A stretch of 64,000 bases of DNA from a virus. Below the pieces are notes generated by a model, which worked only from the letters and a program-made list of their open reading frames with translations, ran no database searches and was not told the DNA's origin. How positions within the stretch are numbered: the stretch's first letter is position 1; each line of letters begins with the position of its first letter. Both the position numbers and the translations under genes were made by a program. Positions 7,631 to 25,277 of this stretch are shown here, one piece after another. The stretch is taken from positions 64,001 to 128,000 of the IMG/VR virus record IMGVR_UViG_3300033148_006102. One strand, 5' to 3'.

Positions 7631-7631
7631 C

Positions 7632-8283: not shown

Positions 8284-8297
8284 ATTGAAAGGAACAG

Positions 8298-8851: not shown

Positions 8852-8984
8852 TCTTGAAAGGAAACTGTGGAGAAGCAGGAAGTTGTAATCAAAGTAGTTG
8901 AAAAGGGTGGCAGCGGAATAAGTATCCTGTCGCTGCTTGGCATCGCCGGCGTACTGCCAAGCAGTATGGTTGGTATCAGTAATT

Positions 8985-9058
8985 GGCCACGTCGTCTAAT
9001 GGAAGGATACCAGGCTTTCAACCTGGAGACCGGGGATCGATACCCCGCGTGGCTACCA
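8985..9058 (+). tRNA. tRNA-Glu(TTC)
   Basis: GGCCACG/CGTGGCT-A-CCA; loop CT-TTC-AA; embedded in frame in ORF 8867-9262. Confidence 0.9.
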
Positions 9059-9076
9059 ATTTCACAAGGAGAAGGA

Positions 9077-9262
9077 ATGGCAGAAGAATATGTGACATCG
9101 TTGGTGGACAAACCATCGATTGATATTACTGCACCAAAGGCAGTACAGATCGATATTCGTGAGGATGGGAAGGTGCTCTGGATCAACGTGGACGGGATCT
9201 GTCGTTTACGTTGTTGTCAGATTGAGCTCCTTGAAGTTGAAGACAGGCGAACGAAGAAATGA
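9077..9262 (+). CDS. Small hypothetical protein (in frame with an upstream GTG at 8867)
   Basis: AAGGAGAAGGA SD before ATG 9077. Confidence 0.6.
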   Translation: MAEEYVTSLVDKPSIDITAPKAVQIDIREDGKVLWINVDGICRLRCCQIELLEVEDRRTKK

Positions 9263-9567
9263 AGATGTATATTTTGGTCAAGGAGGATGTGCGCTTAGGC
9301 CTTGCCGCCGTAAGTATCGCGCACGCTGCCATGGCCGCCTATTTGGCATACAAAGACACGCCAGAAGTAAAAGAATGGCTCGCCGGTCCTTTCTACAAAG
9401 TTGTGTGTAAAGTGACTGCGCAAGAGATGGAGCAGGCTAAGGACGCCGGGGACTATGTCAGGATCACAGATTCAAACTATGCGGATGGGACTGTGATAAT
9501 TGCACTGGCATTCAAGCCGCGGGAAGAATACCCGAAGGCGTTCAAATACTTCAAGCTTTTCAAATAG
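9259..9567 (+). CDS. Peptidyl-tRNA hydrolase 2 (PTH2)-like protein
   Basis: MYILVKEDV...AVSIAHAA...FYKVVCKV...ALAFKPR pattern of PTH2-fold proteins. Confidence 0.75.
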   Translation: MKMYILVKEDVRLGLAAVSIAHAAMAAYLAYKDTPEVKEWLAGPFYKVVCKVTAQEMEQAKDAGDYVRITDSNYADGTVIIALAFKPREEYPKAFKYFKLFK

Positions 9568-9642
9568 GTCGCGTGGCGCAACAGGGAGCGCATCAGCATG
9601 ACACGCTGAAGGTTAGAGGTTCGATTCCTCTCGTGGCCACCA
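9567..9642 (+). tRNA. tRNA-Val(GAC)
   Basis: GGTCGCG/CGTGGCC-A-CCA; loop AT-GAC-AC. Confidence 0.88.
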
Positions 9643-9656
9643 AATTTGAGGAAAAC

Positions 9657-9905
9657 ATGCTAGAACCACAGAAGACAAAACACATCAAAGAATACCCAGT
9701 CACCATAGAAACCATATTTCCTTTGGATACGTTTGACGTGCGATGGACAGAAGGTCCGGCGACGCAGCGCGTAAAGATTCGACAGGTAGAAACAGGAATC
9801 TATTTGATGTGCGACAACGATGTGCGCCCGCTCGAGGTCACAATTCCTTGGGAACGATTCTTCAATAAAATTGAAGAGCTCGTATTATCGAGCAAGCCGA
9901 TATAA
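9657..9905 (+). CDS. Hypothetical protein
   Basis: GAGGA SD and ATG 9657; ORF-track start 9573 lies inside the tRNA. Confidence 0.6.
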   Translation: MLEPQKTKHIKEYPVTIETIFPLDTFDVRWTEGPATQRVKIRQVETGIYLMCDNDVRPLEVTIPWERFFNKIEELVLSSKPI

Positions 9906-9981
9906 GCCCGCATAGCTCAACTGGGAGAGCGCCTGACTTACATTCAGGAGGTTGGGAGTTCGAAACTCTCTGTGGGCACCA
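9906..9981 (+). tRNA. tRNA-Val(TAC)
   Basis: GCCCGCA/TGTGGGC-A-CCA; loop CT-TAC-AT. Confidence 0.9.
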
Positions 9982-9982
9982 T

Positions 9983-10060
9983 GGCCGCATCGTCTAGTCT
10001 GGCTCAGGATACTGCCCTCTCAAGGCAGAGACGAGGGTTCAAATCCCTCTGCGGCTACCA
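9983..10060 (+). tRNA. tRNA-Glu(CTC)
   Basis: GGCCGCA/TGCGGCT-A-CCA; loop CT-CTC-AA. Confidence 0.9.
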
Positions 10061-10078
10061 CAATTTTGAGAAAGGAAA

Positions 10079-10154
10079 AGCCCCGTAGCTTAATTGGAAA
10101 AGCGTCCGCCTCCTAAGTGGTCAGATCTCGGTTCGACTCCGGGCGGGGCCGCCA
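10079..10154 (+). tRNA. tRNA-Arg(CCT)
   Basis: Loop CT-CCT-AA, T-loop TTCGACT, GCCA end; 1:72 mismatch. Confidence 0.82.
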
Positions 10155-10159
10155 ATAAC

Positions 10160-10435
10160 ATGACACACAAATTCATCAAAGAAAAAATAGAACCAAAACT
10201 TGCGGAGCTTGAAGCGAAGTTTCCGCGACGTTCAAAAGTGAGAGTGCGGAGCGCGCCTTGGGAATACCCGCATTGGCAGCGCATAGGGCACGTAGTTGAC
10301 TATGACGTGCGACACAGCGCAAATGATAGTTTGCGTGGTGTGATCAAGATTGTCGCACAGGATGTAGATCCTTGGTATGCATGGGAAGAGGATGTTGAGA
10401 TTCTTTGGGATGCGCCATCTGGGACTTTACCATAA
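10160..10435 (+). CDS. Hypothetical protein
   Basis: ATG just after the tRNA-Arg CCA within ORF-track 10094-10435. Confidence 0.55.
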   Translation: MTHKFIKEKIEPKLAELEAKFPRRSKVRVRSAPWEYPHWQRIGHVVDYDVRHSANDSLRGVIKIVAQDVDPWYAWEEDVEILWDAPSGTLP

Positions 10436-10444
10436 TCACAGAAT

Positions 10445-10520
10445 GCCGCTGTCGTTCAACGGAATAGGACATCCGCCTTCTAAGCGGAGAATCGGGGTTC
10501 GAATCCCTGCAGCGGTACCA
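10445..10520 (+). tRNA. tRNA-Arg(TCT)
   Basis: GCCGCTG/CAGCGGT-A-CCA; loop CT-TCT-AA. Confidence 0.92.
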
Positions 10521-10521
10521 G

Positions 10522-10593
10522 GGCACACCCGCATGGTGCGGACTTGCCTCTCATAAGGGCAAAGATTGAGTTCGATTCTCAGGTGTGCCACCA
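10522..10593 (+). tRNA. tRNA-Ile2 or Met (CAT), short D-loop type
   Basis: GGCACAC/GTGTGCC-A-CCA; D-arm CCGCA-TGG-TGCGG; loop CT-CAT-AA. Confidence 0.8.
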
Positions 10594-10684
10594 AATTTCT
10601 CTTGCAACGGTGAATCGGCATAATAGGATTCACGCAGGACTTTATTTTGCCGGAACAGTCCGCCGGCTTACAAAGGAGATCGCA

Positions 10685-12082
10685 ATGATGCATCACAGTA
10701 ACTGTGTGGTCACGCTCTGTGACCAGGACAACCGCCCATTCAGAGAATACAGCCACCACCGCGAAGGCGACGCCTCTCGCGCTAAGGTTAGTATTTCGTA
10801 CGGAACTGAGTACAAGTTCATGTTCCGTATCAGGGACCATCTTCGCCGGCGCGTCGAGTTCACGATCGACGGGTCGCAGGTAGGCGAGCTCATCTTCGAG
10901 GGTAACTCGCAGACCTATCTCGAGCGCTTCATCGACAGCGCACGCAAGTTCAAGGTCGTACATCCGGAGAGTAGCGAGTGCCAGGATCCGGGTAATCCGA
11001 AGAACGGCCAAGTCGAATTGACGGTATGGACAGAGAAGGCGCCGCCTCCGCCACCACCAAGGCCTGCGCGGCGTGCATTCCGCAGCCGTGGTATCACGGG
11101 ACAGACCATAGGTTGTTCTGGTATGAACAGCCCCGTCTTTGGTTCTTCTGCAGGCTCACTGGGATCCGCAGGTCCTGAATATGAGATGTTGACCAACGGC
11201 GCGGCCGCAACAGGCGAGGGCGGTTACTCGAATCAGGAATTTGGGTCGACTACCTGGCGCGGCGACGCAGGTGAGCCGATTACCTTCCAGTTCAAGATTA
11301 TGGGGAAGGAAGATGAGCATGCGCCGAACAGTAAGTTCTTCTACTGTGCGAAGTGCGGTGATCAGGTTCCTGTAGGCTCTAATTATTGCGGCAGGTGTGG
11401 TGCGCATATAGCAAGCATGAATCCTGACGGGTGCACGATTCATCTCGGCATCGTGCTTGATGAGTCGTCATCTATGGAAGGCGACTGGGATATGACGATC
11501 GACGCGATCAACGAGTATCTCGATACGCTGCAGGGTGACGACCACCGATACAGGGTCTCGATCACAGCCTTCAATACGGTGAGTCGTCCGGTCTTTCATG
11601 CGACGGATCTGACGAAGGATGTCCGGATAAGTCGGCACAACTACCGGCCTAACGGTATGACGGCGTTGTACGACGCGATCGCGGATGGTATCGGTAGCCT
11701 CGAAGACAGCGTATGGGATTATGACGGCAAGGCCATGCTGGTGATCATGACAGATGGCCAAGAGAATAGCTCCAGGAACTTCAGCCTTGACCGGATCCGT
11801 AAGTTGATCTCGAGCAAAGAACGCGATGGCAACTGGACGTTTGTCTACATGGGATCGCACAACGATGCTTGGAAGCATGGCAGCGCGCTCGGAATTAGTA
11901 AGGCGAATGTCATGCAGTTTGATCAGGCACAGGCGCAGCCGTTGATGCGCGCGTTTGGTGCAAGTACGCAGGCATATGCCAGCAGCGCGGATGCAAACTC
12001 GCAGGCCATCTTCGCGTCGAATAAAGCGGATTACAAGAATATCGGCGCAACGGCGATAGACGATCATAAGGCGGATTGTTAA
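10685..12082 (+). CDS. Multi-domain protein: N-terminal unknown domain, Zn-ribbon, C-terminal vWA domain
   Basis: AAAGGAG SD; CAKC..CGRC; VLDESSSM (DxSxS MIDAS), TALYDAI, VIMTDGQENSS. Confidence 0.8.
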   Translation: MMHHSNCVVTLCDQDNRPFREYSHHREGDASRAKVSISYGTEYKFMFRIRDHLRRRVEFTIDGSQVGELIFEGNSQTYLERFIDSARKFKVVHPESSECQDPGNPKNGQVELTVWTEKAPPPPPPRPARRAFRSRGITGQTIGCSGMNSPVFGSSAGSLGSAGPEYEMLTNGAAATGEGGYSNQEFGSTTWRGDAGEPITFQFKIMGKEDEHAPNSKFFYCAKCGDQVPVGSNYCGRCGAHIASMNPDGCTIHLGIVLDESSSMEGDWDMTIDAINEYLDTLQGDDHRYRVSITAFNTVSRPVFHATDLTKDVRISRHNYRPNGMTALYDAIADGIGSLEDSVWDYDGKAMLVIMTDGQENSSRNFSLDRIRKLISSKERDGNWTFVYMGSHNDAWKHGSALGISKANVMQFDQAQAQPLMRAFGASTQAYASSADANSQAIFASNKADYKNIGATAIDDHKADC

Positions 12083-12127
12083 CGTTTTCCGGCCCCAAAG
12101 CATAAGTAGTGACGGGCTCTTGACTTT

Positions 12128-12637
12128 GTGATGCACCTGTGTTTTACTCGGCGCATGAAAAAGTTCAAGAGCCCAGCTAAGCACCAAACACCGTTATATC
12201 GAGCACGATGTGCGTATCGTGATATGTCACGTCGTTGCGGCAATCCTAACGGAAAGAATCCAGCATATGTTGATGTTGAACTCCGAATGACGATGGAAGC
12301 ATGGCTGGAGTGGTCGCTGCCGCATTACGAAAAGTTTATAGCTGAAAACCCCGGTGTGTCGCCAAGCGTATCGCGTAACGGCGATGTAGGTCATTATGAA
12401 ATCGGGAACCTGGAAATCGTGTCTTTACAAGAAAATCGTCGACGACAGAAGACGAAGTTGTTGGTGCGACCAAACGGTACGAAGCTTTGTTGTACGTGCA
12501 GGGTGGTGCAGCCAAAAGAAAATTTTTGTAAGAACAGAACACGCGCAGATGGCTTGAATCACGAGTGTCGTAGCTGTCGCGCCATTCGTGTGCGTGAATG
12601 GCGCGCAAAGAAAAAGAAGGCTCCTACTCCTAGATAG
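12128..12637 (+). CDS. HNH-type homing endonuclease
   Basis: MSRRCGNP...SVSRNGDVGHYEIGNLEIV plus C-terminal CCTC..CRSC; stop lies in the tRNA-Lys D-loop. Confidence 0.7.
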   Translation: MMHLCFTRRMKKFKSPAKHQTPLYRARCAYRDMSRRCGNPNGKNPAYVDVELRMTMEAWLEWSLPHYEKFIAENPGVSPSVSRNGDVGHYEIGNLEIVSLQENRRRQKTKLLVRPNGTKLCCTCRVVQPKENFCKNRTRADGLNHECRSCRAIRVREWRAKKKKAPTPR

Positions 12638-12693
12638 CGAGGAACCTGTCTCTTAAACAGGGAAGCGGCGTGCAAGTCGTCGAGGAGCCACCA
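12619..12693 (+). tRNA. tRNA-Lys(CTT)
   Basis: GGCTCCT/AGGAGCC-A-CCA; loop CT-CTT-AA; T-loop TGCAAGT. Confidence 0.85.
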
Positions 12694-12701
12694 ACATATA
12701 A

Positions 12702-12776
12702 GGGCTCATAGTTCAATTCGTAGAACAGCTGACTCATAATCAGCCGATCTCGGTGCAAATCCGGGTGAGCCCACCA
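12702..12776 (+). tRNA. tRNA-Met(CAT), elongator-like
   Basis: GGGCTCA/TGAGCCC-A-CCA; loop CT-CAT-AA. Confidence 0.88.
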
Positions 12777-12798
12777 TCGCTTTCCTTGAAAGGATGGG

Positions 12799-13263
12799 AT
12801 GTCATATACATACGAAACTCTTGTTGAAGTTCAATGTTATAAGTGTGGGATTCGCTTTGGACTGATCCAGAGCTATTACGATCTGCGGAAGCGTGATAAG
12901 AAAGAGTGGTATTGTCCGAACGGCCATACACAGTATTTCATAGGTGAAACTGCTGAACAACGGTTACGCCGTGAATTGCGCGCGGAGGAAGCAAAACACA
13001 GGAAAACCAAGCAAACACTGAAGACACAGCAGACAAGGACTGCAAATTATAGGGAAGACAACGACGCTAAGGATCGCCAGATGATTTCCTTGCGTGGCAC
13101 GATAACCATGTTGCGCCGATACATGAAGGATGGTAAATGTCCGTGTTGTCACAAGACAGTTGATGATTTACCGGGGCATCTAAAAGAAAAGCATCCCCAT
13201 TTCATGGCGCCGGTGCAACCCAAGAAAGAGAAGGAATGCCAAAACCAGAACAAGAACGAGTGA
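12799..13263 (+). CDS. Cys/His-rich coiled-coil hypothetical protein
   Basis: GAAAGGA SD; CYKC, CPNGH, CPCC...HLKEKH. Confidence 0.7.
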   Translation: MSYTYETLVEVQCYKCGIRFGLIQSYYDLRKRDKKEWYCPNGHTQYFIGETAEQRLRRELRAEEAKHRKTKQTLKTQQTRTANYREDNDAKDRQMISLRGTITMLRRYMKDGKCPCCHKTVDDLPGHLKEKHPHFMAPVQPKKEKECQNQNKNE

Positions 13264-13508
13264 ACCTCAAACTGGAGCTGACAGGCCTGCGGGAGTGCGA
13301 TGCGGTCAGTATTGTCAAGCTGATGTGCATGATGAACTACTTCGGCTCGGCCGGTTGCTCGCGAACCATCAAGCTGTTCGTGGACGGCGACGGCGCATTT
13401 AATTTCGGTCGCGTGCTGGTCGACGGCGAGGAAGTATCACGCAAGGAGCGGCTGAAGCTGATTGGGGAATATGACAAGGAAGATGGGCTGGACTTCGCGT
13501 TCGATTAG
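13236..13508 (+). CDS. Hypothetical protein
   Basis: AAGGA SD; last base of the stop is +1 of tRNA-Lys(TTT). Confidence 0.65.
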   Translation: MPKPEQERVNLKLELTGLRECDAVSIVKLMCMMNYFGSAGCSRTIKLFVDGDGAFNFGRVLVDGEEVSRKERLKLIGEYDKEDGLDFAFD

Positions 13509-13584
13509 GGAGCGTGGCGCAATGGTATAGCGCATCGGTCTTTTAAACCGAGGGTTGTGGGTTCGAGTCCCACCGCTCCCACCA
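13508..13584 (+). tRNA. tRNA-Lys(TTT)
   Basis: GGGAGCG/CGCTCCC-A-CCA; loop CT-TTT-AA. Confidence 0.93.
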
Positions 13585-13585
13585 T

Positions 13586-13660
13586 TGGCGCGTAGTGTAA
13601 TTGGGAACACGGCAGACTCTGGATCTGCAGTAGAGGGTTCGATTCCTTCCGCGCCAACCA
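13586..13660 (+). tRNA. tRNA-Gln(CTG)
   Basis: TGGCGCG/CGCGCCA-A-CCA; loop CT-CTG-GA. Confidence 0.92.
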
Positions 13661-13695
13661 AATTTATGGCCGTTCAGATGGACGGAGAAAGGAAG

Positions 13696-14289
13696 ATGAT
13701 GAAGCGGAACGTACTATTGTTAAACAAGAATTGGCAGCCGATCGCGTCGGCGCCGTGGAGAACTGCGGTAAAGATTGTGATTCGCGGCCATGGGTACGTC
13801 GTGGATCATCGAACTTTTGAACGCTTGGATTGGGTAGCTTGGGTCGCTACGCATTCGGCCGGTATCGATGCGGATGTAGACCGGAGGAGATACATCCAAA
13901 CTGGTGTACGGTTAATCGAATGTCCGAAAGTAGTGACCCTTGCCCGATTCGGCGGTTTACCCAAGCGTCGCCTGGCGTTCAGCCGTAACGGCATTTATGC
14001 CAGAGACAGCCATCGTGGTAAGCCGCAGTGTCAGTACTGCGGATCTTACCCAACTGGTAGAAGCCTGACGTTGGATCACGTTATCCCGCGGGCGCAGGGC
14101 GGAAAGACGCAGTGGGAGAATTGTGTTGTGGCCTGCGAAAAATGCAATATGCTCAAAGCAGATCGCACACCAGAACAAGCAGGCATGCGCCTGTTGAGTA
14201 AGCCTAAACGGCCAGAAGTTTTCCAAGCGTTGCTTGGCGAACTCGAACCGGAATGGGAAGTGTTTGTGAAGCAAGGAAATACAGCATGA
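13696..14289 (+). CDS. HNH endonuclease (McrA/HNH_5-like)
   Basis: VLLLNKNWQPI...CQYCG...LTLDHVIPRAQGG...NCVVACEKCNMLKADRTPEQAGM. Confidence 0.9.
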   Translation: MMKRNVLLLNKNWQPIASAPWRTAVKIVIRGHGYVVDHRTFERLDWVAWVATHSAGIDADVDRRRYIQTGVRLIECPKVVTLARFGGLPKRRLAFSRNGIYARDSHRGKPQCQYCGSYPTGRSLTLDHVIPRAQGGKTQWENCVVACEKCNMLKADRTPEQAGMRLLSKPKRPEVFQALLGELEPEWEVFVKQGNTA

Positions 14290-14471
14290 ATGGGACTGAG
14301 CTGAGAGAATACATACGGAAGCAGGTCCGCAGGTTCCATTACATGAGCCTGTGGGATCTTGTCAGTGAACGAAGTAGCCTACCCAGAAATGGAATGCTAC
14401 ATCGAATCCTGGGACACGTGATTGATTACCGACTCTTGGAGTCGGCGCGACAAAGAGCAGGTACAACGTAG
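14286..14471 (+). CDS. Small hypothetical protein
   Basis: ATGA overlap with the HNH stop; TAG overlaps tRNA-Trp +1/+2. Confidence 0.5.
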   Translation: MNGTELREYIRKQVRRFHYMSLWDLVSERSSLPRNGMLHRILGHVIDYRLLESARQRAGTT

Positions 14472-14541
14472 GTCGGGCGCTGGGTCGCAGGACGGTCTCC
14501 AAAATCGTCCTTGGTGGGTTCGATTCCCACCCGGCCTGCCA
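14470..14541 (+). tRNA. tRNA-Trp(CCA), minimal D-arm
   Basis: AGGTCGG/CCGGCCT-G-CCA; 7-bp anticodon stem; loop CT-CCA-AA. Confidence 0.82.
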
Positions 14542-14558
14542 ACAATTTTGGAGGTAAC

Positions 14559-14759
14559 GTGGAATTTGAATATGAATGCAAACTTTGCGGAGCGATCGTC
14601 AAACTAGCGGATCTTGATAAACATCTTGAAGAGGAGCATTGGCTCTCTGCGGATGTTAAAGCTGCGCCCAAGAGTGAGTTCTATAAGCTCCACCTCGAGG
14701 GAGATTGTTATGCGATTGCGGCAGACAGCCTGCCAAAAATAAACGGTTCTGTGGCATAA
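14559..14759 (+). CDS. Small C2H2-like Zn-finger protein
   Basis: GGAGG SD, GTG start; CKLC...HLEEEH. Confidence 0.6.
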   Translation: MEFEYECKLCGAIVKLADLDKHLEEEHWLSADVKAAPKSEFYKLHLEGDCYAIAADSLPKINGSVA

Positions 14760-14818
14760 GACTGTGTAAGGGCAATCTTATGTGGGATGGCCCGTAATGT
14801 AACGGCTAGCACATGGAA

Positions 14819-14893
14819 TGCGGGATCGTTCAATTGGTAGGACACCTGACTTTGAATCAGGCAATGAGAGTTCAAATCTCTCTCCCGCAGCCA
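14819..14893 (+). tRNA. tRNA-Gln(TTG)
   Basis: TGCGGGA/TCCCGCA-G-CCA; loop CT-TTG-AA. Confidence 0.92.
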
Positions 14894-14907
14894 AAAAAGG
14901 AATAGCG

Positions 14908-15399
14908 ATGAAAAAACACAGTCATGGGAAATACGTGATGTTAGTGTTTTCCGATGGTACACGTGTTCTAGAACATCGCTATGTGATGGCGCGACATATT
15001 GGTCGGAAACTACATAGTGATGAAGTGGTGCATCATCGGAACGGAGACGGAAAAGATAATCGTCTACGCAATTTACGGTTATGGTCTTCGAACAGTGAAC
15101 ATACACAACATCACGCGCGGGAGCGTAGTCGAAGTGTCACATGCATGACCTGTGGTAGGTCCTTTGTGTTGAGCCTGGGCGAGTATACGCGCAGGAAACG
15201 TCGAGTAAAACATGGTTTGTACTGCTCACGCTCGTGTGCAGCGCGTTCACCATATACGCGGCGCGCGGAAAGCAAAATTGGTGATTACATACAGCTGTGT
15301 AAAGATTTACCAGGTATATCGATCAATGAAGCAGCAAGTATTCTGAGGGTTTGTCGTAGGACCATATGTAATTGGCGACGACGCCTGAAGAACAATTAA
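14908..15399 (+). CDS. HNH homing endonuclease (HNH_3-like) with C-terminal HTH
   Basis: EHRYVMARHIGRKL...VVHHRNGDGKDNRLRNL. Confidence 0.88.
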   Translation: MKKHSHGKYVMLVFSDGTRVLEHRYVMARHIGRKLHSDEVVHHRNGDGKDNRLRNLRLWSSNSEHTQHHARERSRSVTCMTCGRSFVLSLGEYTRRKRRVKHGLYCSRSCAARSPYTRRAESKIGDYIQLCKDLPGISINEAASILRVCRRTICNWRRRLKNN

Positions 15400-15435
15400 C
15401 TTTCTTTTGAATCTTTCGTCAAAGGAGAACGAAGA

Positions 15436-17031
15436 ATGGCGAACAAGTCAATTTTCAGCACCCAGCGGGGGCCTGTACATCGACAGTACGGGGAAAGTGT
15501 GAAGACCGTTGATACGGTCAATGAGGCAGGCGGAGAGGCTTACAGCTTCACAGCAAAGTCTGCATTGGCGCAGTTGGCATCGACGGGCTGCTTTGGCAAC
15601 ACGTTCTATGTGAATGCCAAGAGTCAGCTTGACAAGGTTCAGGAATTGTTGCCACAGGTTGACAGCGAGTTTTTGGCCAAGCTGGCCGTATATGCCCGCC
15701 AGAAGGGTTACATGAAGGACATGCCGGCGCTCATGCTCGCGTATCTCTTCGCGCATGCGAAGGATTCTGCGACAGTTGGCGCGTATTTCAAGGCAGCGTT
15801 CCCGGAGGTCATGGACAATGGCCGTATGTTGCGAAACTTTGTCCAGATCATCCGTAGTGGCGTCACCGGGCGTAAGTCGTTCGGTACGGCCGGCAAGCGT
15901 GTGATCCAGGACTGGTTGACTAACCGGTCATACTGGAAGTTGTTCGGCGAAGCAGTTGGCAATGATCCGTCGATGTGTGATGTGCTCAAGATGACGCGGC
16001 CGCATCCAAAGGATGATGAGCAGCGTGCATTGTTTGGTTACATCACTGATGCGAAGGAAGGTTGGGACCGCGAGGCTCTGCCGGACTTCGTGAAGGAATT
16101 TGAGGCCTTCAAGCAGGATCAGACCAAACCTGTACCGAACGTTTCATTCGAACGGTTGTCTGCCCTTCCGCTTGGAAAGGAACACTGGATCGAGATCGCC
16201 AAGAAGGCGACTTGGTTCCAGACGCTCAAATCTCTTAACACGTACAAGCGTCATGGGGCGCTTGAGCATTCTGATGTTGTCGACATTGTCGCTGAGCGTT
16301 TGGCAGATCTTGAGTTGGTCAAGAAGGCCAAGGTATTTCCGTACCAGATCTTTGTGGCTTACAAGGCCGCGAATGACCTGCCACGGAAGATTACTAATGC
16401 GCTGCAGGATGCGCTGGAGCACGCGCTCCGAAACATCCCATTTTATGAGGGCCAGGTTTACATCTTCCCAGATGTTTCCGGCTCAATGTTATGGGGTAAC
16501 TTGACAGGTCATTCGCAGAGTTCAATTCGTTGTATTGACGTGGCGGCATTGATCACCGCGGCGATCATGAAGACGAACTATCTGGCGGAAGTACTTCCGT
16601 TTGATACACGCGTGCATGATGCGAAGTCATTGAATCATCGTGATTCAGTAGTACGCAACGCAGAGATCTTGTCGCGCTTTGGCGGTGGCGGAACGTACTG
16701 CGAGCTTCCGCTGCGTGAACTGAACGACCGTAACGCGAAGGGCGACCTGTTAATCTACGTCTCGGATAACGAGTCGTGGGTCGGCGCCGGCTATCGCAGC
16801 CATACAGGCTTGCTCAATGAGTGGGCGAAGTTCAAGCAGCGTAACCGGCAGGCCAAGATGGTCTGCATTGATCTGCAGGCTAACACCAGCACGCAGGCAA
16901 CGGATACGCCGGACATCTTGAATGTCGGTGGATTCTCTGATCAGGTGTTCAACGTTATCGACGCCTTTTTGAAGGGTGGATCTGATAAGGAACATTGGGT
17001 CAAGGAAATCGAGAAAGTTTATCTAGGATAG
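15436..17031 (+). CDS. rsr: Ro60/TROVE RNA-binding protein (Rsr)
   Basis: NEAGGEAY, LAQLASTGCFGNTFY, YARQKGYMKDMP, MLRNFVQIIRSG, vWA DVSGSM, SDNESW, LNVGGFSDQVF. Confidence 0.95.
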   Translation: MANKSIFSTQRGPVHRQYGESVKTVDTVNEAGGEAYSFTAKSALAQLASTGCFGNTFYVNAKSQLDKVQELLPQVDSEFLAKLAVYARQKGYMKDMPALMLAYLFAHAKDSATVGAYFKAAFPEVMDNGRMLRNFVQIIRSGVTGRKSFGTAGKRVIQDWLTNRSYWKLFGEAVGNDPSMCDVLKMTRPHPKDDEQRALFGYITDAKEGWDREALPDFVKEFEAFKQDQTKPVPNVSFERLSALPLGKEHWIEIAKKATWFQTLKSLNTYKRHGALEHSDVVDIVAERLADLELVKKAKVFPYQIFVAYKAANDLPRKITNALQDALEHALRNIPFYEGQVYIFPDVSGSMLWGNLTGHSQSSIRCIDVAALITAAIMKTNYLAEVLPFDTRVHDAKSLNHRDSVVRNAEILSRFGGGGTYCELPLRELNDRNAKGDLLIYVSDNESWVGAGYRSHTGLLNEWAKFKQRNRQAKMVCIDLQANTSTQATDTPDILNVGGFSDQVFNVIDAFLKGGSDKEHWVKEIEKVYLG

Positions 17032-17037
17032 GAATTT

Positions 17038-17177
17038 GGGGCGAATGCGGACGGGATTACATTGATTCATAATCCGTTGGTCGGAGGTTCGAATCCTTCC
17101 CTCGCCACCACTATGGCGAGGTAGCTCAGTCTGGTAGAGCAGCGTATATGTCAAATCTCGTCGATTCTCGTCGCCCC
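17038..17177 (+). ncRNA. yrlA: YrlA-like Y RNA with permuted tRNA module
   Basis: GGGGCGA/TCGCCCC closing stem; T-arm, acceptor 3' strand with ACCA, acceptor 5' strand, D-arm in permuted order; directly after rsr. Confidence 0.85.
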
Positions 17178-17196
17178 ATCCTTTTCCTTCTTATTT

Positions 17197-17273
17197 GGGT
17201 GAATGCCGGTATGGGAGTACATTTCTGCGTGTAATGCTGAACCATGACCACTCTCTACCATCTTTCGTCACCC
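17197..17273 (+). ncRNA. Short Y-RNA-like RNA 2
   Basis: GGGTGA/TCACCC stem; shared GAATGC..TACATT and TCGTC motifs. Confidence 0.75.
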
Positions 17274-17285
17274 ACCCTTTTGAAA

Positions 17286-17353
17286 TGGCCGAATGCCGAT
17301 TGGACTACATTGTATCCATCACAAACAACGTCTAATCATAAGCTCGTCGGCCA
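17286..17353 (+). ncRNA. Short Y-RNA-like RNA 3
   Basis: TGGCCGA/TCGGCCA stem; GAATGC..TACATT; inner GATTGGAC/GTCTAATC stem. Confidence 0.75.
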
Positions 17354-17362
17354 TTTTCTTTT

Positions 17363-17759
17363 GGGGGTGAGTAGGATCGACTGGTCGTTACTGACTGGAA
17401 GAAGCGTGTCGCAGTTGACCAACACCTGCGTTATCAAGATGGTCGCAAACCCAGATGGCAACATCCATCACATGAGCGATTACGCTCGTCCGCAGCTTCA
17501 GGCTGCATAAAGGACAGCTCCGACCAGGTAGCTACCACACCTGGCTGCGGGATACCAACCCAAGGTGAGAAACCAAACAGAGTTAGGTCGGTGAACATGC
17601 CGCAGAGGGGATTCACCATCGAAGTTACGGCGGATAAGGCGTGACCGGGCTGTCGTCGGCTCAGAGGATCGCTCGAAAACATAGATGACGACTACACACG
17701 TAGAAGTGCCGGAATGATCGATACAGCACACGGGGTGCGACTCCCCGTCACCTCCACCA
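17363..17759 (+). ncRNA. ssrA: tmRNA; tag (A)ANPDGNIHHMSDYARPQLQAA
   Basis: GGGGGTG/CACCTCC-A-CCA with G3:U70, GGATCGAC 5' motif, PK1-like pairings, tag ORF 17445-17510 ending AA. Confidence 0.93.
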
Positions 17760-17765
17760 GATTTT

Positions 17766-17873
17766 GCCGTCGAATGCGGTGATAATTATTACCCCGCACT
17801 GAAAACTATTTCGGGAATTTGGCTACCGGAAATAGGCAGTAGGAAGCCGAATAGCCTACGGGGAATCGGCGGC
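17766..17873 (+). ncRNA. Y-RNA-like RNA 4
   Basis: GCCGTCGA/TCGGCGGC stem with the CGAATGCGG motif; internal hairpins. Confidence 0.55.
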
Positions 17874-17907
17874 CCATATTGAGAGCGCACGGGGGTTCCG
17901 TGCACGC

Positions 17908-17956
17908 GCCGCGCAACGTTCATGCTCATGTCCGTTGCGCGGCTGCTTTCTTTTTT
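17908..17956 (+). terminator. Intrinsic terminator closing the Ro-Y-ssrA unit
   Basis: GCCGCGCAACG/CGTTGCGCGGC 11-bp stem followed by TGCTTTCTTTTTT. Confidence 0.8.
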
Positions 17957-17966
17957 ACGAAGAGGG

Positions 17967-17994
17967 TTGACATCCGATTTATCGAATGTACCTT
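17967..17994 (+). promoter_or_regulatory. Sigma70-like promoter
   Basis: TTGACA-16-TACCTT right after the terminator. Confidence 0.65.
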
Positions 17995-18144
17995 GAGATG
18001 TTCGCGGAGCTTAGCAGGCTTGCACTGCGATTTCGGTTTCTCTGTTCCGACCTGGCACGCTATGCGTGATTAAAAACAGAGTGGTGGACTGGGACAGTGG
18101 ATGGAGGACACCAAATCCGCCGGAAGCCTGTCACGCCCTCGTCT

Positions 18145-18176
18145 TGATCCGGGACGCTAACTTGGATCAGCTTTTT
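18145..18176 (+). terminator. Terminator-like hairpin ending a structured leader
   Basis: TGATCCGGG/CTTGGATCA followed by GCTTTTT. Confidence 0.55.
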
Positions 18177-18184
18177 GAATTTGT

Positions 18185-18262
18185 TGCGGGGTGGAGCAGT
18201 CTAGTCAGCTCGCAAGGCTCATAACCTTGAGGTCGTCAGTTCAAATCCTTCCCCCGCCACCA
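18185..18262 (+). tRNA. Initiator-like tRNA-Met(CAT) with degenerate T-stem
   Basis: TGCGGGG/CCCCGCC-A-CCA with 1:72 mismatch, fMet-type D-arm; T-stem GTCAG/CCTTC has 3 mismatches. Confidence 0.7.
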
Positions 18263-18275
18263 ATTTGGAGAAAAG

Positions 18276-18341
18276 ATGAAGACGTTACTGAGTTACTCGT
18301 CCTTGTATCTGTGCCTCTCAGGCGCGGAGGTTGGCGTGTAA
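18276..18341 (+). CDS. Putative attenuator leader peptide MKTLLSYSSLYLCLSGAEVGV
   Basis: GGAG SD; 21 codons followed by a terminator. Confidence 0.55.
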   Translation: MKTLLSYSSLYLCLSGAEVGV

Positions 18342-18366
18342 CTGGATCTTCATCACCTACCGGTCC

Positions 18367-18401
18367 CAGAAACCCGCCAGCACAACCTGGCGGGTTTTCT
18401 G
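18367..18401 (+). terminator. Intrinsic terminator
   Basis: CAGAAACCCGCCAG/CTGGCGGGTTTTCTG. Confidence 0.8.
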
Positions 18402-18433
18402 TTGAGCTCTTTGACATTTGTGACGGAACTAAT

Positions 18434-18523
18434 GGTCGGTGTTCCCCATGGCGGTCTGTAAAACCGTTGTCGTTAAATATTTGGGGTAGTAGACGAATGG
18501 TCCAATTCCATTACCGACCACCA
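18434..18523 (+). tRNA. tRNA-Tyr(GTA), no D-stem, long variable region
   Basis: GGTCGGT/ACCGACC-A-CCA; loop CT-GTA-AA; T-arm AATGG-TCCAATT-CCATT. Confidence 0.78.
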
Positions 18524-18540
18524 TTTCTTGAAAGGAAAAC

Positions 18541-19029
18541 ATGGGAAGAGAAGTACGAATGGTTCCACCCAACTGGAAGCATCCAATAGGCGATCGTGGA
18601 TACCTACAACCAATGCACGATGAGAACTTCGAAGAAGCACTTGCGGAGTGGAAGAACGGTCAGGCTGCATGGGAAGCTGGCACGCACGAAGATTTCGCAG
18701 AATATGGTGAAGACACCTCCTGGGAAGATTGGGCCGGCGAAGAGCCAGAGCCTGAATACTATCGGCCATGGAAAGCCGAAGAAGCCACGTGGTATCAGCT
18801 CTGGGAGACGGTTAGCGAAGGTACGCCGGTAACACCACCTTTTGCAACAAAGGAAGAGCTCGCGGACTACCTAGTCAATGTCGGCGAAGACTTCGGCCGG
18901 CGACAGACATGGCCGCGCGAGGCCGCTGATAACATGATGCGAGAAGAATGGGCGCCTTCGTTCATTGCTCGAGACGGCGTGATAATGGAGCCTAAGGATC
19001 CTGCTTTCTTTTCGGGAATGAAGAAATAA
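18541..19029 (+). CDS. Hypothetical protein
   Basis: GAAAGGA SD; 162 aa, Trp/acidic-rich. Confidence 0.75.
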   Translation: MGREVRMVPPNWKHPIGDRGYLQPMHDENFEEALAEWKNGQAAWEAGTHEDFAEYGEDTSWEDWAGEEPEPEYYRPWKAEEATWYQLWETVSEGTPVTPPFATKEELADYLVNVGEDFGRRQTWPREAADNMMREEWAPSFIARDGVIMEPKDPAFFSGMKK

Positions 19030-19032
19030 TAA

Positions 19033-19109
19033 GCCTCCGTAGGCGAATTGGGATAGCCGCTTGACTTAGGATCAAGTGTTTGTGAGTTCGACTTTCACCG
19101 GAGGTACCA
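19033..19109 (+). tRNA. tRNA-Leu(TAG), short variable loop
   Basis: GCCTCCG/CGGAGGT-A-CCA; loop CT-TAG-GA. Confidence 0.88.
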
Positions 19110-19114
19110 ATATT

Positions 19115-19236
19115 GAAGAGTACGGCGACGCAGCGAACTGCGGACGGGGTAGGCGGGTTGCTAGCACTTGGCCTGCACGGGCGGAATAAATCGAAAGACG
19201 CCGTGAGCAGAGGTAATTGAACTGCCCGTACTCTTC
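19115..19236 (+). ncRNA. Unknown multi-hairpin structured RNA
   Basis: 11-bp closing stem GAAGAGTACGG/CCGTACTCTTC and four internal hairpins; flanked by tRNAs. Confidence 0.6.
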
Positions 19237-19244
19237 TTCATTTT

Positions 19245-19321
19245 GGCAGCGTAGGCGAATTGGGATAGCCGCCGTACTCAAAATGCGGTGTTTGTGGGTT
19301 CGACTCCCACCGCTGCTACCA
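19245..19321 (+). tRNA. tRNA-Leu(CAA), short variable loop
   Basis: GGCAGCG/CGCTGCT-A-CCA; loop CT-CAA-AA. Confidence 0.88.
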
Positions 19322-19330
19322 CATTCAACT

Positions 19331-19413
19331 GGCTGGATGGCGGAACTGGTAGACGCGCACGGTTGAGGGCCGTGTTCCCAGGAGTGAGGGTTCGAATCCC
19401 TCTCCAGCCACCA
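19331..19413 (+). tRNA. tRNA-Leu(GAG)
   Basis: GGCTGGA/TCCAGCC-A-CCA; loop TT-GAG-GG; longer variable region. Confidence 0.88.
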
Positions 19414-19423
19414 GTTTGACGGA

Positions 19424-19500
19424 GCCTCCGTAGCCCAACTGGGAGAGGCACTTGGTTTAAGCCCAAGTCAGTGTCGGTTCGAATCCGACCGGAGGTACCA
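19424..19500 (+). tRNA. tRNA-Leu(TAA), short variable loop
   Basis: GCCTCCG/CGGAGGT-A-CCA; loop TT-TAA-GC. Confidence 0.85.
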
Positions 19501-19501
19501 A

Positions 19502-19589
19502 GGAGGTATGGCTGAGTGGAAAAGCTCCCGGTTGCTAACCGGTGGACAGGGTAACACCTGCGCAGGTTCGAATCCTGCTACCTCCGCCA
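19502..19589 (+). tRNA. tRNA-Ser(GCT)
   Basis: GGAGGTA/TACCTCC-G-CCA; long V-arm; loop TT-GCT-AA. Confidence 0.9.
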
Positions 19590-19608
19590 ATTTTCTTAAA
19601 GGAGAAAA

Positions 19609-19980
19609 GTGAAACGATATAAGCTGAACCTATCAACAAGATTAGTCGGCACGCTAAATATAGAAGCCGAATCAAAAGAAGAGGCCCTGGAAAAGGCAAA
19701 CGTACGAAGTGATAACAGTAATATCGAATGGTTGAATCACGACCAGGCAGCTGAGATCACCGGTGTTGACTGTCTGGGCGAGGCCACCATCCGCGAATAC
19801 ACCTTCACGGTTAAGCGACAGCTTCAAGGTCAATGTGAAGTAGAGGCGGCTAATGAAGACGAGGCCCGCCGAAAGCTCGACAGTATCATGGAGCATAGTG
19901 ATGGTGACATCGAATGGGATGATGATGGCTATGACATCGAAGATGTTGAAATTGAGGAATGGGAAGCTGACGAGGAGTAA
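19609..19980 (+). CDS. Acidic protein with an internally duplicated domain
   Basis: AAAGGAG SD; two copies of (R/K)Y....V/IEAxxxEEA....IEW. Confidence 0.7.
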   Translation: MKRYKLNLSTRLVGTLNIEAESKEEALEKANVRSDNSNIEWLNHDQAAEITGVDCLGEATIREYTFTVKRQLQGQCEVEAANEDEARRKLDSIMEHSDGDIEWDDDGYDIEDVEIEEWEADEE

Positions 19981-19981
19981 A

Positions 19982-20479
19982 ATGTCGGCAAAATGTAAAA
20001 CACCAAACAAAATAGATCTCAAGAAGCTCGATCTTTATCGAGTCAAATTTGAATGGAATGGTGAGACAGTTTACGGTCTTGTCGATTTGTACGATAGAGA
20101 CTCTGATGAATACGCCGAACGTGGCTTAGTACTTGTGGATCATTGTGTGCTGAGGACACGATATGCGCTACCGCCAAGTAAACTGACACCAATGAAATGT
20201 TCTTTTGAACCTGATGATGAATTTGACCAATATGTTGAGCAGCAGGCCAAAGAGGCGCAAGAGCTCCATAAATCGCTGCCGAAGGACAAGCTCTGTGTTG
20301 GCCATATGTTTTCAATCGGTGTGGGCGATGGTTATGCGTCTTATGTGGTAACAAAGGTATTCAAGAAGAATTGCGATATTGAATGGCGCGGCTTCTGTGT
20401 GGATCGTTGGACGGACCATCACTTCGGATGGGGCGGCCGCTTCCCGATCGATGAGATCATGCGGTACGTGGGACCATAG
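19982..20479 (+). CDS. Hypothetical protein
   Basis: ATG right after the previous stop, within ORF-track 19853-20479. Confidence 0.7.
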   Translation: MSAKCKTPNKIDLKKLDLYRVKFEWNGETVYGLVDLYDRDSDEYAERGLVLVDHCVLRTRYALPPSKLTPMKCSFEPDDEFDQYVEQQAKEAQELHKSLPKDKLCVGHMFSIGVGDGYASYVVTKVFKKNCDIEWRGFCVDRWTDHHFGWGGRFPIDEIMRYVGP

Positions 20480-20481
20480 CT

Positions 20482-20703
20482 TTGACGATGTACATACGCG
20501 AGTCCGCGGATGAATATAGGCCGATCTCAGATGAGGAATTCGATGAGATCAACCGCAAGTGTGATACTGTTTCAGGTGATGCAATTTGTGAAGTATGTGG
20601 AAAACCATATCGTGATCACCCTACGTTGAAGATATACCAGGATCGACACACAGCGTGGTGGTTTCCGAAGATCCTTTGCAACGGGCGCTATGGTCATACG
20701 TAG
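20482..20703 (+). CDS. Small Cys-containing protein
   Basis: CEVCGKPY..H..C; last base of the stop is +1 of tRNA-Ser(TGA). Confidence 0.6.
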   Translation: MTMYIRESADEYRPISDEEFDEINRKCDTVSGDAICEVCGKPYRDHPTLKIYQDRHTAWWFPKILCNGRYGHT

Positions 20704-20789
20704 GAGGGTACCGCTGAAGTGGTCGGCAACCGGTCTTGAAAATCGGGGTGGTGTAACAGCCAGGGGTTCGAACCCTCTACCCTCCGCCA
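20703..20789 (+). tRNA. tRNA-Ser(TGA)
   Basis: GGAGGGT/ACCCTCC-G-CCA; long V-arm; loop CT-TGA-AA. Confidence 0.9.
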
Positions 20790-20794
20790 AATTA

Positions 20795-20833
20795 CTACGC
20801 CCTCGGTGGCTAAATAGACCTCCGAGGGCGTAG
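20795..20833. repeat. 12-bp perfect inverted repeat
   Basis: CTACGCCCTCGG/CCGAGGGCGTAG with loop TGGCTAAATAGACCT. Confidence 0.7.
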
Positions 20834-20896
20834 CGAAAAGGCTCGACGCATTCTGGGAAGGTTTTTCAGATCTGTCAATTGCAATCTTTTGTACGG

Positions 20897-20969
20897 GGCC
20901 GCGATCCGCTGGGAGTGGGGTGCGTCTGCAAAACGCACAGATCAGGTTCGACTCCTGACGCGGCCTCCA
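20897..20969 (+). tRNA. tRNA-Cys(GCA), short D-loop type
   Basis: GGCCGCG/CGCGGCC-T-CCA; D-arm CCGCT-GGG-AGTGG; loop CT-GCA-AA. Confidence 0.85.
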
Positions 20970-21047
20970 TAATTTTTTACCTGCCTCCGCGTTTGTGGAG
21001 GCAGCTGTCGTTGCTGGTTATACTGATAAAGAGAGGCTGTCTAATTT

Positions 21048-21066
21048 GGGACTATCGCATAGTCCC
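21048..21066. promoter_or_regulatory. 19-bp palindromic operator/promoter motif
   Basis: GGGACTAT-CGC-ATAGTCCC perfect palindrome. Confidence 0.7.
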
Positions 21067-21089
21067 AGGTCGGTTCGTGGAGCTAGCTC

Positions 21090-22595
21090 ATGACCATTCC
21101 CGCCAGACAACGAGATACGGTTTCACGTGAAAACCGGCTTGTAGATTTGCTCCAAAAGTACATCGCTACTCTGTCAACTTCAGACCAGACACTGGCGCGC
21201 GCAGATCTAGCGTCAATGGGTATTGAGATTGACAATTATGCTAAGGCCGGTGCGGCTTCTTTGGAAGCGTTGCGCAGTGGGCTTGGCTACGTCCAATCGC
21301 AATATGGTGCCGGGGAAGGCGAGTATGTCCCGCAGGTCAAATTGACCATTGAGTCATTTGTCGCGGATTTTGCTGCAGCCTTAGCGGAGCTGAACACTGC
21401 TATTGAGGAAGCACGGGCGATCAATCAATTTTCGATCGAGCTCATCCTGGAGCGTACAGATCCTTCAACCAGCACATGGTTCTATATGAAAGAAGCTGTA
21501 GCGGGTGATACGACGCTGAGCTTAGCTGGTTTTGAGAATGTGTTCATTTCATCCTACGACACGTTACGTGTTGCGTGCATGGAAATGAAGCTACATTTGA
21601 GCAAGAATATCCGACGACTCGTTATCACGGATGCCTATGTGGGCGCGTACGAGATTGAGCCGGTCGAAGATGATGGGACTGTATCAACCTGGGCGTATCC
21701 ACTAACGTTGGATCTCATAGGTGGTGCGCTATACGAGCGAGGCACAGCAGCGCCATTTACAGCCACACGTCTTCCGGTTGGTGCAGTTTATTCCCGGCGT
21801 GCACAGCTGTTTGCGCCGTTGTTAGGCTATCCGTTGGAATCTAGCGCGTTAACGTACAACACGCTTTATATGTTCGATGAGCTGAGTTGGGTTCTTGGAT
21901 CCACTCCGCAGAATGGACTCATCAAGCTTTTAGATGGCTATGATACAGAAGTAACTATTCGTCGGCCGTACATGCAAGGTAGCAGTGCAAACGCGGCGTT
22001 ATTTACGGTGGCACCAGGCGAAATTGGCTTCTTCCGGATGCTGTACGTGTACGACCACATATATCCACGAGGTGGTTTGCGGCCGCGCTATGTGCTGTTC
22101 GCCAGCGTAGATGGCGCTACGTACAACATTAATGAGGCGTTGTTTGCCGATACGCCAGACGTTTATAATCGTTCACTTGATGATCAGGTAAACGGTTGGT
22201 TCCCGCTTGATTCTACGAAGGCACCGCTAGCACATTATGGCCGTTGCACCTTGCGGAATATCGCGATCCAGACAGCAGATTGGAGTTACCTAAATGATTC
22301 GATCTATGTGGATGTGACAGAGTCGTTTGTGTTGGATAACGTGCGTCTTCATAAAGACGGGGATACTAATCCCATGTTCTCGATGCACAGCGATTGTACA
22401 GTGCATTTGACGAACTGCCATTTTGACGGCGCTATGGCATGGCCTATCATCGAAGAGAATGGTGGTACACCAACAGTAAATGTATTGGTTAATTCAAGCT
22501 TTATGGGAACTGGTTTCACCGAGTGGCTGAAGGGCCAAGGTGTGACAGCGAATGGCGCTGTCGGTCGTAACATTGAAAACGGGGCAGTAGTCTAA
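21090..22595 (+). CDS. Hypothetical virion-associated protein, beta-helix-like C-terminus
   Basis: 501 aa; first gene after the tRNA island. Confidence 0.6.
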   Translation: MTIPARQRDTVSRENRLVDLLQKYIATLSTSDQTLARADLASMGIEIDNYAKAGAASLEALRSGLGYVQSQYGAGEGEYVPQVKLTIESFVADFAAALAELNTAIEEARAINQFSIELILERTDPSTSTWFYMKEAVAGDTTLSLAGFENVFISSYDTLRVACMEMKLHLSKNIRRLVITDAYVGAYEIEPVEDDGTVSTWAYPLTLDLIGGALYERGTAAPFTATRLPVGAVYSRRAQLFAPLLGYPLESSALTYNTLYMFDELSWVLGSTPQNGLIKLLDGYDTEVTIRRPYMQGSSANAALFTVAPGEIGFFRMLYVYDHIYPRGGLRPRYVLFASVDGATYNINEALFADTPDVYNRSLDDQVNGWFPLDSTKAPLAHYGRCTLRNIAIQTADWSYLNDSIYVDVTESFVLDNVRLHKDGDTNPMFSMHSDCTVHLTNCHFDGAMAWPIIEENGGTPTVNVLVNSSFMGTGFTEWLKGQGVTANGAVGRNIENGAVV

Positions 22596-24936: not shown

Positions 24937-25277
24937 TGGCTATGATGCTATTGCAAGGACGACGTATGCATTACCTCACGTGGGAACAAATTTCTGAGAA
25001 TGAATTCCTGGGAAAATGCCAGGAAGGCACTATTCAAGCGCGTCTGATCCGTCGTCGAAAGGGTTGGATGCTGGAGCTTCGCATACTAACAAATCACTGG
25101 TTGCAGGACCCCAGTGTATCGGCGAAACCCACGGACCTGCAAGACAGAGCGGATCGAATTATCCGCAATGGCGTGGCCCGATGGCTTCGGGTCTCGGAAG
25201 GAGTAGAAAATGCCAGAAGATGCAATTGCAGTAGAAATGCTAAGTACGCCCGCGCAGTTTGCAGCGAGGCCGAGTGA
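24936..25277 (+). CDS. Hypothetical protein
   Basis: TAATG coupling. Confidence 0.55.
   Translation: MAMMLLQGRRMHYLTWEQISENEFLGKCQEGTIQARLIRRRKGWMLELRILTNHWLQDPSVSAKPTDLQDRADRIIRNGVARWLRVSEGVENARRCNCSRNAKYARAVCSEAE

Follow-up and report, generated by a model that had tools for sequence, protein, structure and literature searches.

A likely leader-peptide attenuator ahead of a Leu/Ser/Tyr/Cys tRNA gene block in a phage genome: computational evidence

What decides when a phage transcribes the tRNA genes it carries? To our knowledge, the control of phage tRNA genes is largely uncharted. The reason for having such genes is itself debated, with codon compensation and evasion of tRNA-targeting defences as the main proposals (PMC10264068, PMC11555353). 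The question is raised sharply by a short intergenic segment within the tRNA island of a phage genome that is complete (195,108 bp), has direct terminal repeats, and carries all its genes on the + strand. We analysed a 64,000-nt stretch of this genome (bases 64001-128000, hereafter the window). ARAGORN called 28 tRNAs in the whole genome, all of them within window positions 2879-20969, and HNH endonucleases, a Ro60 homologue, a YrlA-type Y RNA, and a tmRNA are interspersed among them. From the analyses described below, we consider it likely that a trp-type, ribosome-sensed leader-peptide attenuator gates the block of Leu, Ser, Tyr, and Cys (L/S/Y/C) tRNA genes together with orf162 and three small ORFs; the support is computational only, with no RNA or ribosome data.

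The coordinates of the locus and of its neighbors are collected in Table 1. In the upstream part of the island, the Y RNA scored slightly below the Rfam gathering score of 69 bits; it lies directly 3' of the Ro60 gene and contains a circularly permuted tRNA-like module. The tmRNA is followed by a very strong terminator (17907-17957, -26.8 kcal/mol). Two further unusual tRNAs, at 2201-2285 and 2963-3039, were missed by the standard ARAGORN run. The missed genes include a tRNA-Asn (GUU) whose variable region contains an additional hairpin and which has no encoded CCA, and a tRNA-His-like (GUG) gene that was detected only in the mitochondrial mode of ARAGORN. The last tRNA gene before the segment of interest is an initiator-like tRNA-Met, whose 1:72 mismatch is readable in the sequence. 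Since this gene lies upstream of the putative switch, it is not gated by it.

Table 1. Positions of the leader module, its neighbors, and comparable cassettes (window coordinates unless stated otherwise)
Feature	Position	Strand	Details
Second attenuator-shaped module	1924-2171	+	TTGATT-N17-TACCTT, 46-codon ORF ending at 2107, antiterminator/terminator, TTTTTGACA..TTGTGA, Asn-like tRNA
Ro60 homologue	15436-17031	+	TROVE and vWA_Ro60 domains
YrlA-type Y RNA	17038-17180	+	Rfam, 64.9 bits, E = 1e-13
tmRNA	17363-17759	+	Rfam, 69.1 bits; not called by ARAGORN
Promoter-like site TTGACA-N16-TACCTT	17967-17994	+	Sequence motif; function inferred
tRNA-Met (CAU), initiator-like	18185-18262	+	ARAGORN; Rfam tRNA, 42.5 bits
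Shine-Dalgarno core GGAG	18267-18270	+	Followed by AAAAG and ATG at 18276; 5-nt spacing
Hairpin A (pairing 1:2)	18274-18354	+	Predicted -32.5 kcal/mol; contains the start codon and the whole ORF
Leader ORF	18276-18341	+	21 sense codons (MKTLLSYSSLYLCLSGAEVGV); TAA stop at 18339-18341
Sensor run	18285-18320	+	Codons 4-15 (LLSYSSLYLCLS); 12 consecutive Leu/Ser/Tyr/Cys
Strand 2 (antiterminator 5' strand)	18329-18346	+	Overlaps the last leader codons and the stop codon
Strand 3	18365-18382	+	Terminator 5' arm plus 5' flank; partner is strand 2 or strand 4
Intrinsic terminator (pairing 3:4)	18369-18403	+	12-bp GC-rich stem 18369-18380/18387-18398; loop CACAAC
boxA-like motif	18406-18416	+	GCTCTTTGACA; motif match, directly 3' of the terminator
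tRNA-Tyr-like gene without D arm	18434-18523	+	Sequence and fold; first gene past the putative switch
orf162	18541-19029	+	162 aa, unknown function; inside the gated unit
tRNA-Leu UAG, CAA, GAG, UAA and tRNA-Ser GCU	19033-19589	+	ARAGORN
tRNA-Ser UGA and tRNA-Cys GCA	20703-20969	+	ARAGORN; end of the tRNA island
Cassettes of LR745206.1 (coordinates within 340000-389999)	2381-2545, 25030-25176, 47701-47890		Leader/terminator cassettes, each ahead of a tRNA block

The original prediction had placed here a Shine-Dalgarno motif, a 21-codon leader, a strong terminator, and a boxA-like motif, and all four were found where it had put them. Its residue counts (Leu 5, Ser 4, Tyr 2, Cys 1) were also correct, and these 12 residues are contiguous besides, encoded by UUA CUG AGU UAC UCG UCC UUG UAU CUG UGC CUC UCA. 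This run was the longest of L/S/Y/C codons in any of the six frames of the 195-kb genome (runner-up, 10), and in 30 genomes simulated with a first-order Markov model no such run exceeded 11. L/S/Y/C made up 12 of 20 leader residues against an expected fraction of 0.26 (binomial P = 0.0015), and the leader was poor in residues for which the upstream block has tRNAs (7/20 versus 0.59 expected). Each of the eight downstream tRNAs has a cognate codon in the run, and 11 of the 12 run codons are readable by them. Coverage of all eight had a probability of 0.25 given the peptide and of 0.09 given random L/S/Y/C codons, and this codon-level agreement was therefore not counted as evidence; the mirroring of the four Leu anticodons by four Leu codons was dropped on the same ground, as a synonymous match at P = 0.25 given the peptide. 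A Shine-Dalgarno sequence comparable to that of the leader precedes 16 of the 32 long ORFs in the window. The leader starts 5 nt past a tRNA 3' end, an odd spot for ribosome loading, and its translation is inferred.

Beyond the leader, the terminator stem (-20.7 kcal/mol, predicted) is followed by the tail TTTTCTGTT with the U tract UUUUCUGUU. In our own scan of the 195-kb genome it ranked among the approximately eight strongest terminators on the + strand; a consensus scanner overlooked it solely because three T's were counted into the stem. The 3' end of the leader had been proposed to be partly complementary to the 5' arm of this terminator. The complementarity is real and larger than claimed, with strand 2 pairing to strand 3 at a predicted -18.8 kcal/mol as a hairpin and -20.1 kcal/mol as a duplex. 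Its significance was only moderate (P = 0.025 against dinucleotide shuffles and 0.055 against random windows of the phage genome). The three predicted pairings 1:2, 2:3, and 3:4 are mutually exclusive, and the module as a whole folded more stably than shuffles (z = -4.06). In the absence of a ribosome, hairpin A is predicted to hold strand 2. When the full transcript was folded to equilibrium with ribosome masks, the terminator was always kept (P about 0.94). The attenuator model therefore requires kinetic, co-transcriptional control. The trp attenuator has the same equilibrium property and works kinetically. Equilibrium folding of the full transcript was dropped as a test because kinetic attenuators behave likewise, and co-transcriptional snapshots were used instead.

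For these snapshots, we folded the RNA up to the terminator loop (18386) with a ribosome mask of 30 nt. With the A site at codons 1 to 14, the 5' arm of the terminator was sequestered (0.87 for the core, 0.7 for the whole arm). With the A site at codons 15 to 22, sequestration was 0.12 to 0.35 for the core and about 0.2 for the whole arm; in the snapshot without a ribosome it was 0.30. The switch between the sequestered and the free arm fell at the end of the L/S/Y/C run. As far as these folding models go, the geometry is that of a ribosome-sensed attenuator with termination as the default. The coupling of leader translation to transcription remains an inference.

Every tRNA for Leu, Ser, or Cys that the phage encodes lies 3' of the terminator, as does its sole element with a GUA anticodon, and none lies before it. 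The original prediction listed one Tyr, four Leu, two Ser, and one Cys tRNA downstream. The Leu, Ser, and Cys members of this set were called by ARAGORN, but the putative Tyr gene was called neither by ARAGORN (standard, relaxed, or mitochondrial mode) nor by the Rfam tRNA model and is non-canonical. This element has a 7-bp acceptor stem, A73, CCA, a GUA anticodon in the 7-nt loop CUGUAAA, and a T arm; it fails the canonical cloverleaf, with only about 9 nt between the acceptor and anticodon stems. The first gated "tRNA" may not be a functional tRNA-Tyr. In its predicted fold, the linker CCCCA pairs with UGGGG of a 28-nt variable region, and the T loop reads UCCAAUU.

Three of the Leu genes are unusual in another respect. 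The tRNAs with anticodons UAG, CAA, and UAA (19033-19109, 19245-19321, and 19424-19500) are 77-nt paralogs, about 75% identical, with a variable loop of 5 nt in place of the long variable arm expected in bacterial tRNA-Leu; only the GAG species is longer (83 nt). Three small ORFs lie between tRNA-Ser GCU and tRNA-Ser UGA. The product of orf162 had no Pfam family match and had 809 homologues (E <= 0.001), at 55% identity or less. In other phages these homologues adjoin RecT/YqaJ recombination genes; in the present phage, the gene lies within the tRNA block.

Transcription of tRNA-Met and the leader probably begins at the promoter-like site at 17967, an assignment that rests on the motif of the site. 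The sole other intergenic copy of this TTGAyn-N16/17-TACCTT design (TTGATT-N17-TACCTT, at 1924) stands at the head of the other attenuator-shaped module. Two structures lie between the 17967 site and the tRNA-Met gene: a 180-nt strongly folded leader (-65 kcal/mol) 3' of the site, and a weaker terminator-like hairpin (18144-18170) with CUUUUUG immediately before the gene. Sigma-70-like sites are few in the phage, fewer than in shuffles. Past the terminators of both the 18369 and the 1924-2171 modules, we found (C/T)TTTGACA and then TTGTGA. The post-terminator TTGACA was considered as a promoter -35 element and rejected, as neither the site past the 18369 terminator nor that at 2166 had a -10 hexamer at promoter spacing (16 to 18 nt). 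There is therefore no visible promoter from which the L/S/Y/C block could be transcribed on its own. Since the phage's own promoters are unknown, an unrecognised promoter past the terminator cannot be excluded.

The boxA-like motif AGCTCTTTGACAT is present in two exact copies, one at 3125-3135, right after tRNA-Gly, and one at 18406-18416. With one mismatch allowed, six matches were found versus 1.9 expected, a number reached in 1 of 100 shuffles. We take GCTCTTTGACA to be one position off the E. coli rrn boxA core GCTCTTTAACA. Such copies could possibly make polymerase resistant to termination across the long untranslated tRNA stretches, a suggestion supported by the motif match alone, without NusB/NusE binding data. 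A scan of viral contigs for GCTCTTTGACA-N1-3-TTGTGA returned 53 loci, each an unrelated coding region or a promoter from another phage family.

A leader whose middle part consists solely of L/S/Y/C codons thus stands before a switchable stop and the matching tRNA genes, and the phage therefore probably makes its Tyr, Leu, Ser, and Cys tRNAs only when the leader codons are read slowly. In the mechanism that we propose, transcription from the promoter-like 17967 site would run through the initiator-like tRNA-Met gene, and a ribosome loading at GGAG/AUG (18267-18278) would then face the 12 consecutive Leu/Ser/Tyr/Cys codons. If decoding were fast, the ribosome at codon 15 or beyond, or at the stop, would cover strand 2 (18329-18346), the terminator (18369-18398) would form, and RNA polymerase would halt at the U tract. 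If aminoacyl-tRNAs for Leu, Ser, Tyr, or Cys were scarce, the ribosome would stall within 18285-18320, hairpin A would open, and the freed strand 2 would pair with the 5' arm of the terminator (18365-18382). Polymerase would then continue into the tRNA-Tyr-like gene, orf162, and the four Leu, two Ser, and one Cys tRNA genes. Without a ribosome, strand 2 would be held by hairpin A, and termination would be the default. The outcome would be a demand-driven supply of just those tRNAs that the leader samples. Both the read-through and its response to the supply of charged tRNA are inferred. Amino-acid-matched attenuation of tRNA genes, the core of what had been predicted for this locus, was supported by every available computational test: the ORF is translatable, the run is unique in the genome, the predicted pairings exclude one another, and the stall window ends with the run; no experiment bears on it.

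The design is found elsewhere. In the same phage, the module at 1924-2171 is textbook-shaped, with clear predicted 1:2/2:3/3:4 alternatives: 2090-2103 can pair with 2128-2140, or 2130-2140 can pair with 2151-2161, followed by a T run. In its leader, L/S/Y/C residues are depleted (5/45), and those of its own block show mild enrichment (32/45, P = 0.065). The other instance, LR745206.1, surfaced in BLAST and is an unrelated, AT-rich, 635-kb uncultured megaphage, of which positions 340000-389999 were analysed. This 50 kb holds three tRNA blocks, each behind a leader/terminator cassette, and we took as the leader the last small ORF before the strong terminator preceding each block. For the His/Phe/Trp/Lys/Arg/Ser block, 16 of 30 residues of the leader containing HKNFSKSHKWFS were cognate (P = 0.0095); for the Glu/Tyr/Ile/Gly/Met block, 12 of 27 in the leader containing SYESYYEEG (P = 0.03); and for the Asn/Arg/Leu/Val/Ile/Thr/Met block, 29 of 37 in the leader starting with MTTMNLNMTMNLTLNVVNITL, including a run of 20 (P = 1e-5). 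No leader was significantly enriched for the residue set of another block, the nearest case being leader B against block C (16/27, P = 0.06). In the snapshot models, each sequestration of the terminator arm falls where the matched run ends. These leaders lack a Shine-Dalgarno sequence. The same design is thus present in an unrelated phage, and the matching of leaders to blocks is diagonal. The 1924-2171 module and the megaphage cassettes resemble the 18266-18416 module in having a promoter-like site, a small ORF, an antiterminator/terminator, and a tRNA block, with a stall window that ends with the matched run. They differ from it in lacking any sequence similarity to it, and the 1924 leader, at 46 codons, is mixed and matches its block weakly.

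The most serious alternative is that the terminator is a plain, constitutive one that ends a small promoter/tRNA-Met unit, that the small ORF and its composition are coincidental, and that an unrecognised phage promoter of their own serves the downstream tRNAs. The region 18263-18400 would then be a 3' external spacer with a structure of its own, which might be released as a stable or Hfq-type small RNA in the manner of the E. coli leuZ 3'ETS. This account fits the bracketing of a single tRNA by the 17967 promoter-like site and the terminator, the good folding of the spacer, a terminator that forms in every equilibrium calculation, and the scarcity of sigma-70-like sites in a phage whose promoters are largely unknown. 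What the locus shares with 3'ETS-leuZ is a folded spacer that separates a tRNA 3' end from an intrinsic terminator; unlike 3'ETS-leuZ, the phage spacer carries tRNA-matched codons in a Shine-Dalgarno-led ORF, together with an antiterminator, and more tRNA genes lie past its terminator. Coincidence would have to be invoked four times at once, for the longest L/S/Y/C run, for an ORF led by a Shine-Dalgarno sequence, for the matching tRNAs directly downstream, and for a stall window ending with the run. Nor does the TTGACA past the terminator come with a -10 hexamer, and the cassette design recurs in the unrelated LR745206.1. We regard the plain-terminator account as unlikely, though not to be dismissed.

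The ORF might instead matter for its product, a small hydrophobic peptide (a membrane-active or signal-like 21-mer) with a terminator that merely ends its mRNA. It does have a good Shine-Dalgarno sequence and an ATG, begins with MK before a Leu-rich stretch, and is rich in Leu, Ser, and Tyr with a single Cys; small protein genes, in some cases with annotated transmembrane segments, do occur in phage tRNA regions, that of T5 being an example. In our judgement, however, the peptide is too short and too rich in Ser and Tyr for a typical membrane helix, and the downstream tRNA match and the 2:3 geometry would go unexplained, which makes a functional peptide very improbable. A switch that senses a tRNA or a protein without translation, whether T-box-like or through factor-dependent antitermination, would make the ORF irrelevant. 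Alternative structures exist and the regulated genes are tRNAs, as such a switch would have it, but no T-box matched in Rfam over 16900-21200 at E <= 1, and the position of the alternative pairing follows the reading frame and its stop codon, the arrangement seen in ribosome-sensed attenuators. We give a translation-independent switch hardly any credence. Ribosome-sensed attenuation of the L/S/Y/C block remains the reading that we favor.

Leader-peptide attenuators of this type are familiar from enterobacteria, in the leaders trpL, hisL, leuL, pheL, and thrL, in the multivalent ilvGMEDA and thr leaders, and in pheST (pheM). The phage locus shares with trp-type attenuators a short Shine-Dalgarno-led ORF, clustered regulatory codons, a stop codon at the edge of strand 2, the 1:2/2:3/3:4 pairings (here as predicted), a GC-rich terminator followed by a U tract, and, in our model, termination by default when translation is absent. 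It samples several amino acids, as the ilv and thr leaders do, and would control a component of translation and not biosynthesis, as pheM-pheST does. Unlike all of these trp-type attenuators, the phage-encoded locus starts 5 nt after a tRNA gene, would regulate tRNA genes, and samples four amino acids through 11 different codons in place of one codon repeated. Since its targets would be tRNA genes, what is sensed and what is produced would belong to the same class of molecule. The boxA-like motif recalls rrn boxA/Nus antitermination in its placement, where long untranslated RNA genes begin and, in the second copy, behind a tRNA (3125), like boxA in rrn leaders and spacers; the parallel is limited to a motif match with two exact copies, and host boxA could not be compared since the host is unknown. 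The kind of mechanism, leader-peptide attenuation, is thus known, and what is new is that it is proposed to act on tRNA genes, within a phage, through a leader that samples four amino acids. Full-text literature searches found no published description of leader-peptide attenuation of tRNA genes.

No relatives close enough for conservation or covariation analysis were found, the best protein identities being 39 to 55% and non-syntenic. Searches with orf162 gave two loci at 40 to 42% identity, and the next best match in a search of 5.8 billion proteins was at 55%; the contexts of three orf162 matches were RecT/YqaJ early regions without tRNAs, and all fetched loci were tRNA-free. Ro60 relatives reached 44 to 45% identity only, and the neighboring helicase, searched with 10-kb flanks, 39% or less. 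The exact terminator sequence had no other occurrence in the viral collection, and megablast and blastn against 50,697 phage records returned generic tRNA similarity only. Rfam matches over 16900-21200 at E <= 1 were confined to tRNA, tmRNA, YrlA, and chance plastid or viral elements.

If the proposed attenuator operates, the phage gauges decoding speed at specific codons and makes tRNAs on demand, and the question of why phages carry tRNAs becomes testable as the question of which stress induces read-through. Classic trp-type attenuation would extend to RNA genes and to viruses, and leaders would serve as a computable label for the tRNAs that a phage expects to lack. A broader interpretation, which we offer tentatively and hold to be doubtful as a whole, is that the leader is a sensor of tRNA depletion in an arms race, that replacement tRNAs with atypical bodies are switched on by it, that the island is an inducible translation-rescue module, and that the cassette is general in large phages. 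Under this depletion-sensor interpretation, cutting or depletion of host Leu, Ser, Tyr, or Cys tRNAs by anticodon nucleases, by other tRNA-targeting defences, or by the host shut-off of the phage would stall the leader. The three class-I-like tRNA-Leu species without a long variable arm and the D-arm-less Tyr-like RNA may escape the same nucleases, and the rescue module would comprise the switch, the other attenuator, Ro60/YrlA, and the tmRNA. Were this so, the cassette would represent a general and unrecognised form of tRNA gene regulation in large phages.

The tRNA region of phage T5 (NC_005859) contained promoters and small CDSs and no short leader/terminator cassette. The design is therefore not universal, and T5 was for the same lack rejected as a cultivable analogue. 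One of its genes, T5.072 (15618-15893, minus strand), is a CDS of 91 aa that immediately precedes promoter P14a and the tRNA group Tyr-Glu-Trp-Phe; it contains WEGWEGEIEWLYFYDVE, a segment rich in Tyr, Glu, Trp, and Phe, the same four amino acids, possibly by coincidence.
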